Positions 612 to 60,706 of a stretch of DNA of 64,000 nucleotides are shown one piece after another (position 1 is the stretch's first letter; each line of letters begins with the position of its first letter). A model generated the notes under the pieces. That model searched no databases. It had not been told where the DNA came from and was given only the letters and a program-made list of their open reading frames with translations. The stretch is taken from positions 1 to 64,000 of the IMG/VR virus record IMGVR_UViG_3300010167_001484; one strand, given 5' to 3'. Source of the DNA: a virus (taxonomy: Duplodnaviria; Caudoviricetes). Position numbers and translations under genes: made by a program.

Positions 612-949
612 TGCTGGACTGTAGGATTAAAAGTGTCCATCAGCTAAGGAGTTAATCGCGACAGAGTCATGGGACAAGTGGAGGAAGGCCAGACTGTTAC
701 CATGGCGGGATAGTATAGGATAGCCCTGATATTGGTTAGATATCTTAAACAAGTATCTCTGAAAGTATCCGAAGAACCCTCTAAGCATTGATCTCAGCTA
801 AGTGAGGGAAGACTATCTCGGCAGAGTGAGGAGAGATGACTCACACTTCAAGTAACAAGTATTAGTAGGTGCTGAAACGAATGACCAAAGTTACTTGATT
901 GCCATATGTTAACCTACCGTGGATTATTTAGTGTAATAACACACCAGTA
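612..949 (+). ncRNA. Large structured ncRNA with a 23S rRNA H43/H44 (uL11-binding)-like core
   Basis: Ends TGCTGG/CCAGTA pair; GTAGGATTAAAAGTGTCCATC..CTAAGGAG and GTGTAATAACAC match GAC loops; several internal helices; no ORF. Confidence 0.7.
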
Positions 950-1920: not shown

Positions 1921-1928
1921 ATAATTTG

Positions 1929-1960
1929 AAATGACATTCTAATGGATGTCATTTTTTATT
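1929..1960 (+). terminator. Rho-independent terminator closing the RNA operon
   Basis: AATGACATTC-TAAT-GGATGTCATT followed by a T tract. Confidence 0.8.
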
Positions 1961-4910: not shown

Positions 4911-5405
4911 ATGAGTAGAAGTAATGATGAACTTAAAGGTGTGACATTGTTAGGAAATCAAAATACAGAATATGAATATGGATATAATCCTAATATTCTT
5001 GAGACATTTCAAAATAAACACCCTGACAACGACTATTTTGTCAAATTCAATTGTCCGGAATTCACTTCACTCTGTCCGATGACAGGGCAACCAGATAATG
5101 CGACAATCTACATCTCTTATGTTCCTAATATGGATATGGTAGAGAGTAAATCTCTTAAACTTTATCTATTCAGTTTCCGTAATCATGGAGATTTCCATGA
5201 GGATGTAATCAATATCATCAAGAAAGATCTTATCAAACTTATGGATCCGAAGTATATTGAAATATGGGGTAAGTTTCTACCTCGTGGTGGTATTTCTATT
5301 GATCCGTATTCAAATTATGGTAAATCTGGAACAGCGTGGAAAGAAATCGCAGAACAGAGACTATATCAACATGATATGTATCCTGAAATAGTTAATAATA
5401 GATAG
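4911..5405 (+). CDS. queF: NADPH-dependent preQ0 reductase QueF (type I)
   Basis: [42 protein letters not shown]. Confidence 0.95.
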
Positions 5406-5406
5406 T

Positions 5407-5973
5407 ATGGAAATTTGGAAAGATATAGAAGGTTATGAAGGTTACTATCAAGTTAGTAATCAGGGCAATGTTAGAAGCTTAGATAAAATCATAACAAACA
5501 ATAAGGGTGTAACTTATGAACGATTAGGTAAAATTCTATCATTCAATTTGAATGCAGGGTATCCTCAGATTTATTTGAGTAAGAATGGAGTCGTTAGAAC
5601 ATATAGAATTCATAGACTTGTAGCACAAGCATTTATACCTAATCCTGAAAATAAACCTACAGTCAATCATAAGGATGAAACTCGAACAAACAATAATGAT
5701 TGGAATTTAGAGTGGGCAACTTATAAAGAAAATTCTAATTATGGCACATTACCTGATAGATTTAGTATAGTACATAGTGGTAGACAAGTATCTATAGAAA
5801 CTCGTAATAAACTAAGTGAAGCTCGTAGAGGTTATAAACATTCAGAAGAAACATGTAAGAAAATATCTGAGGGTAATAAGGGTAAAATAGTATCCGCTGC
5901 TACAGGTAGAAAAATATCAGAATCCAAACGAAAACATAAATATACTGATGAGAAATCCAAGAAATTATTTTAA
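5407..5973 (+). CDS. NUMOD4-HNH-NUMOD3 homing endonuclease
   Basis: EIWKDIEGYEGYYQVSNQGNVRS, HRLVAQAFIPNP, VNHKDE..TNN...NLEW, HSEET.KKISE. Confidence 0.9.
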   Translation: MEIWKDIEGYEGYYQVSNQGNVRSLDKIITNNKGVTYERLGKILSFNLNAGYPQIYLSKNGVVRTYRIHRLVAQAFIPNPENKPTVNHKDETRTNNNDWNLEWATYKENSNYGTLPDRFSIVHSGRQVSIETRNKLSEARRGYKHSEETCKKISEGNKGKIVSAATGRKISESKRKHKYTDEKSKKLF

Positions 5974-6002
5974 ATTGATTTAATAAGAAAGGTATAGCAG
6001 AT

Positions 6003-6647
6003 ATGAAGAAAGCTCTAGTAATTTTTAGTGGGGGGCAGGACAGTTCGACTTGTCTTATAAATGCATTACAACAATACGATGAAGTACAAGTTATAACATT
6101 TAAATACGGGCAAAAACATGTGATAGAAATAGATAAAGCTATTGAAATTGCAAAACATTTTGATGTGAAGCAAACTATAATAGACTTAGAATTGATGAAA
6201 GACATCACATCTAATGCTCTCATGAATGCAGATATGCAAATAAACTATGAAGAGGGAGAATATATTCCTAATACGTTTGTAGATGGTAGGAATGCAATAT
6301 TCATATTATTAGCTGCAATCTATGCAAAATCGCAAGATATTAAAGATATCATCGTAGGTGTTTGTGAAACAGATTTTAGTGGTTATCCAGATTGTCGCCA
6401 CGTTTTTGTAAAATCTATGAATGTAACAATTAATCTAGCTATGGATTATAACTTTAATGTTATAGCGCCTCTGATGTATCTAACTAAGAAAGAAACATGG
6501 GCACTTGCAGATGAATTGGGATATTTAGAATATGTGCGAGATAATACTCATACTTGTTATGAAGGAATAATAGGCGGTTGCGGTGTATGTCCTAGTTGTA
6601 TTCTTAGAAATAAAGGATATGACGAATACATGCAAGAATGTACATAA
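6003..6647 (+). CDS. queC: 7-cyano-7-deazaguanine synthase QueC
   Basis: [12 protein letters not shown]-loop, YGQKH, GRN, GYPDCR, CY.G...[10 protein letters not shown]. Confidence 0.95.
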
Positions 6648-6916: not shown

Positions 6917-7224
6917 GCATTTTCATTAAAAGTGCCGAGGGTAGACCTACTTACGCCTTACAGGTATTGTAAGGGTATAGCGTAACTAAGACGAAAGGGG
7001 TGGTTCATCTCATGTCTAAAGACACGAGTATTCCCACAAATTTGATAAAACTTCATATCATAGTAAACTTACACCTTGGGATGATAGTTTATTAACAGAT
7101 TATTTATTATCACTTGTATTGAATACATTAGGTTCTGGTGAATATGAAGTATGGAATGGAGAATTGGGTAAAGGATGGCCTGCAGATGAAATTGTTAAAA
7201 TAATTTCGTTATAGTATATATGAA

Positions 7225-14115: not shown

Positions 14116-14516
14116 ATAATACACAGATGAGAAAATTACAGAATTTCTTAGATGCTGAAAAAGCGGGATTATTGATTAAATTACCTTGTCCTATAGGTAC
14201 AAGAGTATATCGAATAGTAAGTATGGATGAATATCTCAAAGTGATGGGATGTTGTGTTTGTATACCTATAAGTGATAATGATACAGTTTGTACATATTTT
14301 GATAAAGATGAACCTGATGGAGAAATTTGTGCAATTAGTGGTCAGAATGTTATTGTTAGAGATATTGAATATCGATTGATTTCTTGCAGATTCACATATG
14401 AGATGATTCCTGAAGTAGATAAATATGTATTCATTAATTCTAGTGATGCATGGGAAGTATTTATAACAAAAAGATTCGCAAAGGAGGTATTGAATTGGAA
14501 CGACCCTCGAAAGTAG
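14112..14516 (+). CDS. Hypothetical phage protein
   Basis: GLLIKLPC.IG..VY motif common in Firmicutes phages. Confidence 0.7.
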   Translation: MNNTQMRKLQNFLDAEKAGLLIKLPCPIGTRVYRIVSMDEYLKVMGCCVCIPISDNDTVCTYFDKDEPDGEICAISGQNVIVRDIEYRLISCRFTYEMIPEVDKYVFINSSDAWEVFITKRFAKEVLNWNDPRK

Positions 14517-16114
14517 AATATTATTTAGATATTGCACACAGTGTTGCAATGAGGGGTACATGTCTTCGTAGAAAATTTGGTTCAGTTATAGTTAATGCTG
14601 ATGAGATTATATCTACAGGTTATGTAGGTGCACCTAGAGGTCGAAAGAATTGTATTGATATAGGTAATTGTAAGAGGCAACGATTACAAATACCTGCCGG
14701 TGAACGATATGAACAGTGTTTATCTGGAGATACTTTAATATATATGTTATCTGGTGAGCATAGAACTATTAAAGAACTTTCTGAAGGTGAAGATGAAGAA
14801 ATTCATATTATATCTATAGAAGATGGTAATATTGTGCCCGCTGTAGCTCAAAAACCATTCTGTTCAGGTAGAAAGAGTATTATTCGTATTGTATTTGATG
14901 ATAATACTTATCTTGATTGTACATCAAATCATCGCATAATGCAACGAGATGGATCTTATATTGAAGCAATTAATCTTAAAGAAGGTAATAGTATAATGCC
15001 TTATTATTCTGGTGATGGGGTTATTTGTAATACTTGGAGTGAGCGATATTCTAAACCGAATAAACAAGAACGATTAAATTGGAAACAATGGTGTAAAACT
15101 ACATCTACCGATATTGCGTGGTTAGTATATCAATATTATAATGGACAAATAATATCAAATCTACCTCATAATCATCCGGATGAACTCTGTATTCATCATG
15201 AAGATGAGAATCATAATAATAATCAACCAAATAATCTAGAATTAACTACAAGGAGTATGCACAGTAGTAAACATGGTGATTTAGGTGAATATGTTAAAAA
15301 TAATCCAGAACAACATAGATTGAATTGTATCAAAGGTAGTGAAGCTTATAAGTTAAGACGAGAAACTGATGAGAAGTTTCGGGCAGAGGATTCTGCTAGA
15401 CGAGCCGCAAATACTCGTAAGCAATGGGAAAATCCACAACATAGATTAAATATGTTACCTCATCAAAAAGCCGCATGTAAGAAGTTAGCAGATATGTATA
15501 ATAGTTGTCCTAAATCTATAAATAGTAGAATGAAAGGTAAAATACTTAAAGGCATATCTCAATTATACTATATTCTAGGTACAACTGATATAGATATATC
15601 TGAATATGATTCTTTAGCAAGACAATATACAACAAAGAAATGTATAATATATAAAACAGCTACGGTACTTAAAAGATTCAATTCTTTATATGAAGCATTT
15701 GATTTGGCGAAAACATATAATCATAAGGTTAGAAATGTTGTATTTCTTAAAGATGAAGTAGATGTGTATGATATGACTGTGCCGGGATTAGAAAATTTTG
15801 CTGTGAATCTTGGCAATAATTCTGGGATATTTGTACATAATTGTAGGTCCTGCCACTCCGAGTGCAATGCTATCATATCAGCATCTAGACATGAAATGAT
15901 TGATAGTACTTTATATCTTGTAGGTATAGATGCTGAAACAAATGTAACTATATTAGGAGCTATGCCTTGTGCAATGTGTAAAAGAATGATAATAAATGCA
16001 GGAATCAAGAAAGTTATTATCAGAGATGCTACATATGATGATGGATATATAGAAATTGATGTGAGAGATTGGATATACAATGATGAGTCTTTAGAATCAC
16101 ACGAAGGTTATTGA
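14495..16114 (+). CDS. dCMP deaminase containing an intein
   Basis: RP...YYLDIA..VA.R.TCLRR.FG, TGY.GAPRG; HSE.NAII and PCAMCKR zinc motifs; TTG start after GGAGG. Confidence 0.92.
   Translation: MERPSKVEYYLDIAHSVAMRGTCLRRKFGSVIVNADEIISTGYVGAPRGRKNCIDIGNCKRQRLQIPAGERYEQCLSGDTLIYMLSGEHRTIKELSEGEDEEIHIISIEDGNIVPAVAQKPFCSGRKSIIRIVFDDNTYLDCTSNHRIMQRDGSYIEAINLKEGNSIMPYYSGDGVICNTWSERYSKPNKQERLNWKQWCKTTSTDIAWLVYQYYNGQIISNLPHNHPDELCIHHEDENHNNNQPNNLELTTRSMHSSKHGDLGEYVKNNPEQHRLNCIKGSEAYKLRRETDEKFRAEDSARRAANTRKQWENPQHRLNMLPHQKAACKKLADMYNSCPKSINSRMKGKILKGISQLYYILGTTDIDISEYDSLARQYTTKKCIIYKTATVLKRFNSLYEAFDLAKTYNHKVRNVVFLKDEVDVYDMTVPGLENFAVNLGNNSGIFVHNCRSCHSECNAIISASRHEMIDSTLYLVGIDAETNVTILGAMPCAMCKRMIINAGIKKVIIRDATYDDGYIEIDVRDWIYNDESLESHEGY
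14717..15841 (+). mobile_element. Intein (375 aa) with HNH-type endonuclease
   Basis: Starts CLSGDT, block B CTSNHRI, ends VYDMTV...NF......FVHN followed by Cys; internal IHHEDENHNNNQPNNLEL. Confidence 0.9.
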
Positions 16115-46886: not shown

Positions 46887-46914
46887 TTTCGTTATAGTAT
46901 ATTGTCATAAGGAG

Positions 46915-50795: not shown

Positions 50796-51737
50796 ATGAA
50801 TATTATAAAAGCTTCTGAAATTAAATTTAGTCCTCGTAATCTATACGGGGTTAAATATTATGTTACAAAAGAAAAGGACTCAGATAGTAGTAGATATTCT
50901 GTAGTCCAAAGAGAGGAATATGGTGATTACAAATTTTACATACGTATATGGGAGAATCATCAATGGGTATATCCTAGCGGACGTAGTTGGTGGACTGCTT
51001 GTGATGGTTTTCCAACACTCAAAGCTGCTGCACATTGGTTAAGTCAGCATGATTGGAAGAATGGCACATCTAATTTCATTGAAATGGATGAATCATTCAA
51101 TGAGAATTATAAGAAAGATTTCATAGAAGCTATGGAATTATTTGGATTTCAACGTACAGATGATCCTTTCTATGATAAAGATGATTTAGTATATGATTAT
51201 TCTGAAGATAAATCAGATAACATTTTAGATGGATATATCAGAATTAGAGTTCTGTATTATGAAGAAGGGCCTCATGTTACATATTGGATCAATGGGAAAC
51301 GAGTTCAAGAATATGAATCTCCTAATATTGAACAAATTATCCAACATATAGAAAAAACACTTAAGAAGTATGGATATAGTGATTTAATCAAGGCGGGATT
51401 AGTTCCTACATATAATCGTAGTAAAATAATGGCTGCGATCAATACGAGAAATCTTGCAGAAAATCTTATAAGAGTACGTTCTTCTAATTTGTGGTCTTAT
51501 TGTATTAATATTAAAAACTACGGCGACAGAAATGGTGATGTCTTAGTTCAGTACAAAGCTACTAATGGAGGGCCTGGAGATATATATATTTATTATGCAG
51601 TGCCAGTCAAGATTTGGAGAAAGTTTGTGTCTGCTCCAAGTAAAGGACACTTTGTATGGAAATATATACGAAATGTGTACCGTTACTCCAAGTTGACGGG
51701 GGATAAACGTGGTCGCTTACCCAATGCAATAAACTAA
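50796..51737 (+). CDS. Multidomain protein with C-terminal KTSC domain
   Basis: VRSSNL..Y...Y.Y..VP..IW..F.SAPSKG.F....IRN.Y.Y. Confidence 0.75.
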   Translation: MNIIKASEIKFSPRNLYGVKYYVTKEKDSDSSRYSVVQREEYGDYKFYIRIWENHQWVYPSGRSWWTACDGFPTLKAAAHWLSQHDWKNGTSNFIEMDESFNENYKKDFIEAMELFGFQRTDDPFYDKDDLVYDYSEDKSDNILDGYIRIRVLYYEEGPHVTYWINGKRVQEYESPNIEQIIQHIEKTLKKYGYSDLIKAGLVPTYNRSKIMAAINTRNLAENLIRVRSSNLWSYCINIKNYGDRNGDVLVQYKATNGGPGDIYIYYAVPVKIWRKFVSAPSKGHFVWKYIRNVYRYSKLTGDKRGRLPNAIN

Positions 51738-59095: not shown

Positions 59096-59154
59096 TTTTT
59101 CAAATAATTTCGTTATAGTATACATAATAATCAAATAATCCAAAAGGAGAGTGT

Positions 59155-60619: not shown

Positions 60620-60706
60620 TTGATTGAAATGGATTTAGAAATCTTAAAATAATTTCGTTATAGTAGATGTAGTTCAAATTGAAATCAATTAAGGAGGAAA
60701 TTTACA

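Follow-up and report, generated by a model that had tools for sequence, protein, structure and literature searches.

In a 214,046-bp phage record from IMG/VR (33% GC), the first 64 kb, hereafter the window, encode a 336-nt RNA on the plus strand (613–948) whose two ends together rebuild the GTPase-associated centre (GAC) of bacterial 23S rRNA, the 58-nt domain that binds uL11 and thiostrepton. The limits of this GAC-mimic RNA were set by its closing helix and by the limits of covariance-model matches. We found that it belongs to a real family of phage RNAs in which both the secondary and the tertiary fold of the GAC are under selection. We favor the reading that the RNA is an off-ribosome GAC mimic that would act as a sponge for host uL11, and on the basis of sequence comparison we assign this reading a probability of about 0.45.

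Correspondence of the RNA ends to the 23S GAC

The E. coli rrlB 23S sequence (nt 1051–1108) was used as the reference. Window positions 613–652 correspond to nt 1051–1090 and positions 931–948 to nt 1091–1108, without gaps and with 38 of the 58 positions identical. The initial annotation of this DNA had aligned the two ends position by position with H43/H44; its strings and coordinates were correct, and the alignment was confirmed against the real rrlB sequence. All 16 canonical GAC pairs are kept in the window copy. The annotation had also described the changes as compensatory, and 14 of the 20 differences from E. coli indeed form seven double changes that keep known GAC pairs (1053/1106, 1054/1105, 1057/1081, 1064/1074, 1082/1086, 1090/1101 and 1092/1099). 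Moreover, C1072U accompanies the change from C1092-G1099 to U1092-A1099. These nucleotides are those of a known tertiary triple, as the base triple of C1072 with the 1092–1099 pair has been documented in the real GAC (PMC2952862, PMC8614978). The U1060.U1078 mismatch, A1067, A1088, A1095 and the GUAAUA loop are also kept. A search with an exact 17-mer of the 3′ half returned two chance matches only.

The closing helix is equivalent to the top of H42. Its 5′ strand (613–617; nt 1051–1055) pairs with its 3′ strand (944–948; nt 1104–1108) as GCUGG/CCAGU, and in the family there is free covariation at each of the five pairs. The H43 equivalent (619–643; nt 1057–1081) carries the loop UUAAAAGUG at 627–635, with A1067 at 629 and U1072 at 634; its pairs 1057/1081, 1058/1080 and 1064/1074 covary in the family even though they were not used in member selection. 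The junction C-UAA-G (nt 1082–1086), followed by G1087, A1088, G1089 and U1090, occupies 644–652. The 1082/1086 pair covaries (UA in 36 members, CG in 23 and AU in 5), with UAA, G1087 and A1088 invariant. On the 3′ side, the H44 equivalent (931–943; nt 1091–1103) is a GU-GUAAUA-AC hairpin in which A1095 lies at 935 and the U1092-A1099 pair at 932/939, followed by A1101, C1102 and A1103. The features that define family membership are all present in the window copy: the closing helix, an H43 loop of the type UUARAAGYR, the U1060.U1078 mismatch and the UAA junction with its 1082/1086 pair (619–648), and an H44 hairpin of the form G(C/U)-GUAAYA-(G/A)C followed by A1101-C-A, here GUGUAAUAACACA at 931–943 with the matching U1072.

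The two halves are separated by a 278-nt insert (653–930) consisting of a closing helix (653–657/922–926; UAAUC/GAUUA), predicted internal helices and a UUUA linker (927–930). As in the rest of the family, the insert directly follows G1089-U1090, has its own closing helix and ends in a YUUUR linker. All of the insert helices proposed in the initial annotation (GUCAUGG/CCAUGGC, GGGAUAGU/ACUAUCUC, CCCUC/GAGGG, GUGAG/CUCAC and UCAAGUAAC/GUUACUUGA) appeared in the minimum free energy structure with pairing probabilities of 0.9–1.0, and the closing helix had a probability of 0.4–0.8. They gained no further support, as stability relative to shuffled sequences was unremarkable (z=-0.54 for the insert and z=-0.16 for the whole RNA), and we detected no similarity of the insert to 95 other family inserts or to any family locus. 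Single-sequence fold stability is uninformative in this case because the GAC depends on tertiary contacts. Since the insert has no homologue for covariation, its helices and the pseudoknot GUAGGU/ACCUAC remain thermodynamic predictions only.

Comparison of the insert with E. coli rRNAs gave chance-level matches only, and on this basis a likeness of GGAAGGCC-AGAC to Kt-42 was dismissed. A group I intron or an intervening sequence (IVS) was also rejected as the identity of the insert; no intron family matched at E<=10, with the P3-P9 core not found, and family inserts go down to 27 nt. Across the family the inserts are of unrelated types, and the shell is the conserved and selected part. Some insert types share motifs, either a CC-N-GNRA/UAAC-N-GG hairpin followed by UAAGG, or GUGCGAAAUGU. 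The window copy is the most elaborate in our sample and illustrates how far the scaffold can be decorated.

A phage RNA family under selection for the GAC fold

A scan of IMG/VR with a degenerate pattern covering the H43 loop, its 3′ strand and the junction identified at least 118 loci. None of those listed was a contiguous 23S gene; all continued from 'GA|GU' into unrelated sequence, which is the same split point as in the window. A matching 3′ half was found in 87 of the listed loci (77 unique sequences), following an insert of 58–313 nt with its own closing helix. The layout after the insert was a YUUUR linker, G(C/U)GUAAYA(G/A)C-ACA and the complement of the 5′ end. For the window subtype (A1064-U1074, U1072), a scan found 21 loci, the shortest insert among them being 27 nt. 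Anchoring the scan on the 3′ half yielded 119 loci, which included 77 new ones. More than 190 phage loci contain the split architecture, which consists of a GAC shell, an insert of 27–313 nt after U1090, a YUUUR linker and A1101. When the same 5′ pattern was scanned against 185,579 representative cellular genomes, there were at least 120 matches, and all that were listed were contiguous, true 23S genes with U1101. Because the insert after U1090, the linker and A1101 were absent from all 120 real 23S genes sampled, we consider these three features to be specific to the mimic. G1089-U1090, C1097, U1061A/G and the U/U-A triple are also present in natural 23S rRNAs, and 'GAGU' at 1087–1090 was rejected as a mimic signature since many real 23S genes have it.

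We counted pairs on the GAC structure and the insert closing helix in an alignment of 36 short-insert members (A1) from which the window was excluded. In this alignment 96.7% of the cells were paired, compared to 71% in shuffled alignments and 35–57% when the 3′ partners were slid by 1–3 columns. There were 196 double-change cells compared to 57 in shuffles, and the observed number was reached in none of 500 shuffles. Helices 2, 3 and 5 covary although they were not used to pick sequences, with helix 5, the insert closing helix, doing so at four of its four pairs. Across the family, the 1072/(1092-1099) triple was C/C-G in 61 cases, U/U-A in 10 and mixed in 3 (Fisher p ~1e-9, uncorrected for phylogeny), and the U1072/U1092-A1099 class comprised 15 distinct shells. 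Hence the family homologues conserve the H43/H44-like halves with covariation that is strong relative to shuffles, and the proposal in the initial annotation that the RNA is an rRNA mimic rebuilding the H43/H44 uL11-binding domain is strongly supported by this covariation, including that of the 1072/(1092-1099) triple.

A covariance model built from A1 (R1) matched the window at 613–754 (32.4 bits, E=1.3e-6) and 804–948 (17.8 bits, E=0.006), with outer ends at exactly 613 and 948, and had no other match in the whole 214-kb genome. The match was split in two because the 278-nt insert exceeds the span of the model. With R1 the RNA was detected in each of the 51 records tested, mostly in a single copy, and the window had the lowest score. 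To judge from its sequence, the window RNA is a divergent and heavily decorated member of the family.

Cultured carriers of the RNA are GAP32, CBB, Serratia BF, fHe-Yen9-04, the pEa_SNUABM phages, Kaldavass, XacN1, XbC2, XaC1, pf16, Milchi, Astolliot, UNO-G1W1, Aeromonas 4_4572, Paenibacillus Pd_22F and a Vibrio phage. In Milchi and GAP32 we verified that the whole split architecture is present. The location of the mimic is unannotated in most of these genomes, and a 'hypothetical protein' is drawn across it in Kaldavass and Milchi. In the Milchi locus (L258, 2499–2662) this GenBank entry is a 43-aa coding sequence on the opposite strand, as is likewise the case in Kaldavass; the one in Milchi is probably spurious. 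The RNA is housed in tRNA or tmRNA clusters. A tRNA lies within 1 kb in 77 of the 111 unique family loci, on the same strand in all 77 cases, and Rfam searches of 14 relatives gave tRNA and tmRNA matches elsewhere in the loci and none on the mimic. BLAST searches of public phages with the RNA region and with the first 6 kb of the window returned nothing, and no relatives were found by way of the neighboring RNaseH-like protein.

Some phages have two copies of the mimic. In one record the copies are close together (G014:C1:48161–48318 and 51432–51581), and in two others they are far apart (G033:C1:18377–18525 and 192063–192226; G047:C1:7154–7239 and 211463–211546). Paired copies at both ends of a record possibly lie in terminal repeats. 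The minimal members (L039, L073, L124 and L137) are 85-nt RNAs with a 27-nt hairpin insert and an H44 loop of GUCGUA rather than GUAAUA.

Partner proteins and alternative readings

The surface contacted by uL11 through its C-terminal domain (CTD) consists of nt 1058–1060, 1062–1065, 1075–1083 and 1088 (PMC1802607). We counted these sites in 64 unique members that were retrieved by the 3′ half alone and are unbiased for the H43 loop. The listed contact nucleotides were either invariant or covarying as pairs; G1059 and U1060 were present in 64/64, A1077 in 62/64 and A1088 in 63/64. The tip of the H43 loop (A1067, A1070 and U1065) was more variable in the phage family than in rRNA. The A1067 site was A in 48 members, G in 10, C in 5 and U in 1, with A1070G in 10 and U1065C in 7. 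In the ribosome A1067 is the determinant for the action of thiostrepton and stacks on the elbow of the A/R-tRNA (PMC5829649, PMC8614978). Retention of the uL11 face together with variation of the loop tip favors selection on the fold and the uL11 face, and speaks against selected contacts with GTPases, tRNA or thiopeptides.

Neither this phage nor any of 50 further carriers, of which 29 are at least 90% complete, yielded a uL11 gene; any uL11 partner would therefore be that of the host. A gene for RelA/SpoT was found in 0 of the 51 carrier records, bL12 was over the cut-off in 2 of 51, and an RNaseH-like PF04308 gene was present in 2 and absent from 49. Thus uL11, bL12, RelA/SpoT and PF04308 were each rejected as a general phage-encoded partner. 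Nor did any neighboring protein occur in more than 10 of the ~135 loci. Since there is no recurring or candidate phage partner gene, a protein partner is most likely host-encoded.

We infer from these patterns that the mimic RNA may bind host uL11. According to this reading, a stable noncoding RNA would be transcribed together with the tRNA cluster from a phage promoter and presumably released by tRNA-processing nucleases. Its two ends would fold as the 23S GAC (the top of H42, H43 and H44), with the 278-nt domain projecting from the 5′ strand of H44, and the free RNA would offer host uL11 a second high-affinity site. The likely consequence would be an altered uL11 load on ribosomes, such that uL11-dependent RelA activation and GTPase turnover would change, although these physiological outcomes are speculative. 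Several points weigh against uL11 capture. A conserved fold does not name its ligand, and toxins, methyltransferases and translation factors recognize the same fold. Simple uL11 sequestration does not explain why an insert is always present at one fixed point. With most cellular uL11 bound to ribosomes, it is uncertain whether the stoichiometry would suit a sponge. Finally, the GAC-constrained fold had a predicted free energy of -66.8 kcal/mol compared to -83.4 kcal/mol for the unconstrained fold in a nearest-neighbor model that ignores tertiary contacts.

A conserved fold recognized by several classes of protein leaves room for ligands other than uL11. The free H43/H44 could be a decoy that absorbs a toxin or immune effector that modifies or cuts the GAC, which we consider unlikely. 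The Tre23 toxin ADP-ribosylates the H44 loop (nt 1095–1098) and blocks the GTPase of EF-G (PMC8661411). In the phage family G1093, U1094, A1095 and A1098 are essentially invariant, but 1096/1097 vary within the targeted loop (GUAAUA in 36 members, GUAACA in 22, GUAGUA in 10 and GUAAAA in 4). Phage tRNAs can replace or shield tRNAs that are attacked by host nucleases, and by analogy the position of the mimic in tRNA/tmRNA clusters, among phage genes that back up translation, would suit a decoy, as would its presence in phages of many hosts. However, a stoichiometric decoy of a catalytic enzyme needs very high expression, there is no conserved partner gene nearby, and we know of no anti-phage system that targets the GAC. 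It is also improbable that the RNA, by itself or jointly with uL11, is a piece of the ribosome that traps EF-G, EF-Tu, IF2 or RelA or stacks on the elbows of tRNAs. The ribosomal GAC contacts such factors, with A1067 stacking on the A/R-tRNA elbow (PMC5829649), and the mimic is encoded among tRNA genes. Yet this key contact is G, C or U in 16/64 members, A1070 and U1065 vary too, and none of the 51 records contains a RelA/SpoT gene. Furthermore, GTPase activation needs the sarcin-ricin loop as well as the GAC, but this loop has no counterpart here, and the region contains no other rRNA-like match.

The constant presence of an insert at the same point (27–313 nt), the large, GC-rich insert of the window and the motifs shared by some insert types could mean that the GAC fold is a mere rigid, nuclease-resistant clamp and the variable insert the functional part. 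This explanation has little probability in our estimation, as no insert sequence is common across the family, the window insert matches none of 95 others, some inserts are plain 27-nt hairpins, and it is the shell that is conserved, down to its tertiary contacts. A sponge for thiopeptide antibiotics of the thiostrepton and micrococcin class is highly improbable. These drugs bind in the cleft between A1067, A1095 and uL11 (PMC8614978, PMC1802607), but the family often has variants at A1067, and such variants make ribosomes resistant. In addition, many carriers infect Gram-negative bacteria (Cronobacter, Erwinia, Pseudomonas and Xanthomonas), and thiopeptides are poorly active on such hosts. The near identity of the 5′ half to bacterial 23S rRNA in many members might suggest a decaying, captured fragment of host 23S rRNA, or a chance likeness. 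Both are effectively refuted by the lack of rRNA similarity past the 58 nt, the abundance of compensatory changes, the more than 190 phage loci, and the fixed insertion point, linker and A1101 that are absent from the 120 real 23S genes sampled; moreover, the GAP32 copy differs from the GAC of its host.

A broader proposal spans uL11 capture and the decoy. The free GAC copy in large phages could be a weapon or shield in an unrecognized conflict, either disabling the RelA alarm through uL11 capture or serving as a decoy of undiscovered Tre23-like effectors; we regard this as possible but rather doubtful. The family consists of near-exact, free-standing copies of a ribosomal functional center that are under selection in hundreds of phages, and it points to an RNA-based viral route to interfere with, or to protect, the host uL11/GTPase site. 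It would be a new class of phage noncoding RNA with a biochemical handle, uL11 binding, and its members are natural GAC variants, with a site after U1090 that tolerates insertions, on which RNA folding can be studied.

Relation to known RNAs and genomic setting

Searches of Rfam 15 gave no match on 480–1130 or on other unassigned stretches, either at the gathering threshold or at E<=10. A full-text literature search found no description of a split-GAC RNA family, and the XacN1 genome paper does not mention it. These results agree with the initial annotation, in which the RNA was not recognized as a named family, and in our assessment no described kind of phage RNA accommodates the split-GAC family. 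The phage RNA shares with the bacterial 23S GAC the helices, the U.U mismatch, the UUARAAGYR and GUAAYA loops, the UAA junction, A1088, and the 1071 and 1072 base triples. In contrast to the 23S domain, it stands alone, closes with 5 bp of H42 and is encoded by a phage within a tRNA operon. A helix or domain inserted after U1090, together with the YUUUR linker, divides it in two, and it has A rather than U at 1101. An LSU rRNA gene or fragment (RF02541) was rejected, as there was no Rfam match at E<=10 and no BLAST similarity to E. coli rRNAs above chance outside of the GAC part.

The closest parallels are the leaders of ribosomal protein (r-protein) genes, such as the L10 leader (RF00557) and the L1-binding rplKA leader, which are likewise off-ribosome RNAs that copy the rRNA site of a protein and bind the free r-protein. 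These leaders are cis-regulatory parts of mRNAs upstream of cellular r-protein genes and their mimicry is loose, whereas the phage RNA is a near-exact copy. Thus rRNA mimicry as a principle is already known from r-protein leaders, and the novelty lies in the carrier, in the context and in how faithful the copy is. The phage RNA was rejected as an r-protein leader itself, since it precedes tRNAs and a terminator, the genome contains no uL11 gene, and no Rfam leader matched. To our knowledge there is no uL11-specific leader of the rRNA-mimic kind. ROOL (RF03087) and GOLLD (RF01998) are also structured noncoding RNAs of unknown function found near phage tRNAs, but they show no sequence or structure match at E<=10 and have not been described as rRNA mimics; both form RNA-only multimers (PMC12286853). 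No Rfam covariance model for ROOL, GOLLD, tmRNA, RNase P or 6S RNA matched the window RNA, and these identities were rejected. The proposed logic, in which an RNA imitates a ligand and captures a protein, is that of 6S RNA, CsrB and the ToxI-like pseudo-antitoxin decoy of a phage (PMC3475682). Those RNAs differ in target and fold, and none of them copies an rRNA domain.

The GAC-mimic RNA lies in a stretch (490–2011) that contains no open reading frame (ORF) of at least 80 aa. Seven tRNA genes (two Gly, Trp, Leu, two Arg and Gln) are located at 1125–1920 on the plus strand in the same RNA-only operon, the first of them 177 nt downstream of the mimic. The GC content across 600–900 is ~44% compared to ~30% in the flanking genes. 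A promoter-like motif, TTCGTTATAGTA, is found on the plus strand at 557–568, 45 nt upstream of the mimic, and overlaps a sigma-70-like site at 547–574. The window contains nine copies of this motif, all of them on the plus strand, compared to 0.69 expected (557–568, 1968–1979, 7205–7216, 46888–46899, 59109–59120 and 60654–60665, plus three copies with one mismatch). The copies are mostly in front of genes, and the motif is probably a promoter element of this phage's own. An intrinsic terminator with a 12-bp stem followed by a T run ends the operon (1928–1955, plus strand), and the motif copy at 1968–1979 is directly 3′ of it. From the placement of the motif copies and the terminator around this stretch, we conclude that the GAC-mimic RNA heads an RNA-only transcription unit.

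Three other segments of the operon are not assigned to genes. The 169-nt stretch between the mimic and the first tRNA (952–1120) is predicted to form a long closing stem and two hairpins; it had no Rfam match at E<=10 and no similarity in ~250 family loci. A 145-nt GC-rich stretch (~50%) between tRNA-Leu and tRNA-Arg (1457–1601) has a 10-bp closing stem, GCCGCCGGCG/GUCGGCGGCU, with no Rfam match at E<=1 and no relatives among the family loci compared. The 89-nt gap between tRNA-Arg and tRNA-Gln (1758–1846) was not called as a tRNA and has a weak fold; a 33-nt part of it is an 85% match to a segment in one family locus (L310).

Directly upstream of the operon is an RNaseH-like gene (1–489; PF04308, YkuK-type). 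Homologues of this gene lie ~1–1.3 kb from the mimic in the Pseudomonas phages Milchi and Astolliot and in record G039. Two further loci in the window contain homing endonuclease sequences. A 554-aa ORF at 14450–16111 has N- and C-terminal parts that match dCMP deaminase and a middle part (aa 243–396) that matches an HNH endonuclease, which suggests an intein-like element or an inserted homing endonuclease. At 4911–6647 a NUMOD4/HNH/NUMOD3 homing endonuclease gene (5407–5973) lies between queF and queC, and the presence of these two genes points to a putative 7-deazaguanine pathway.
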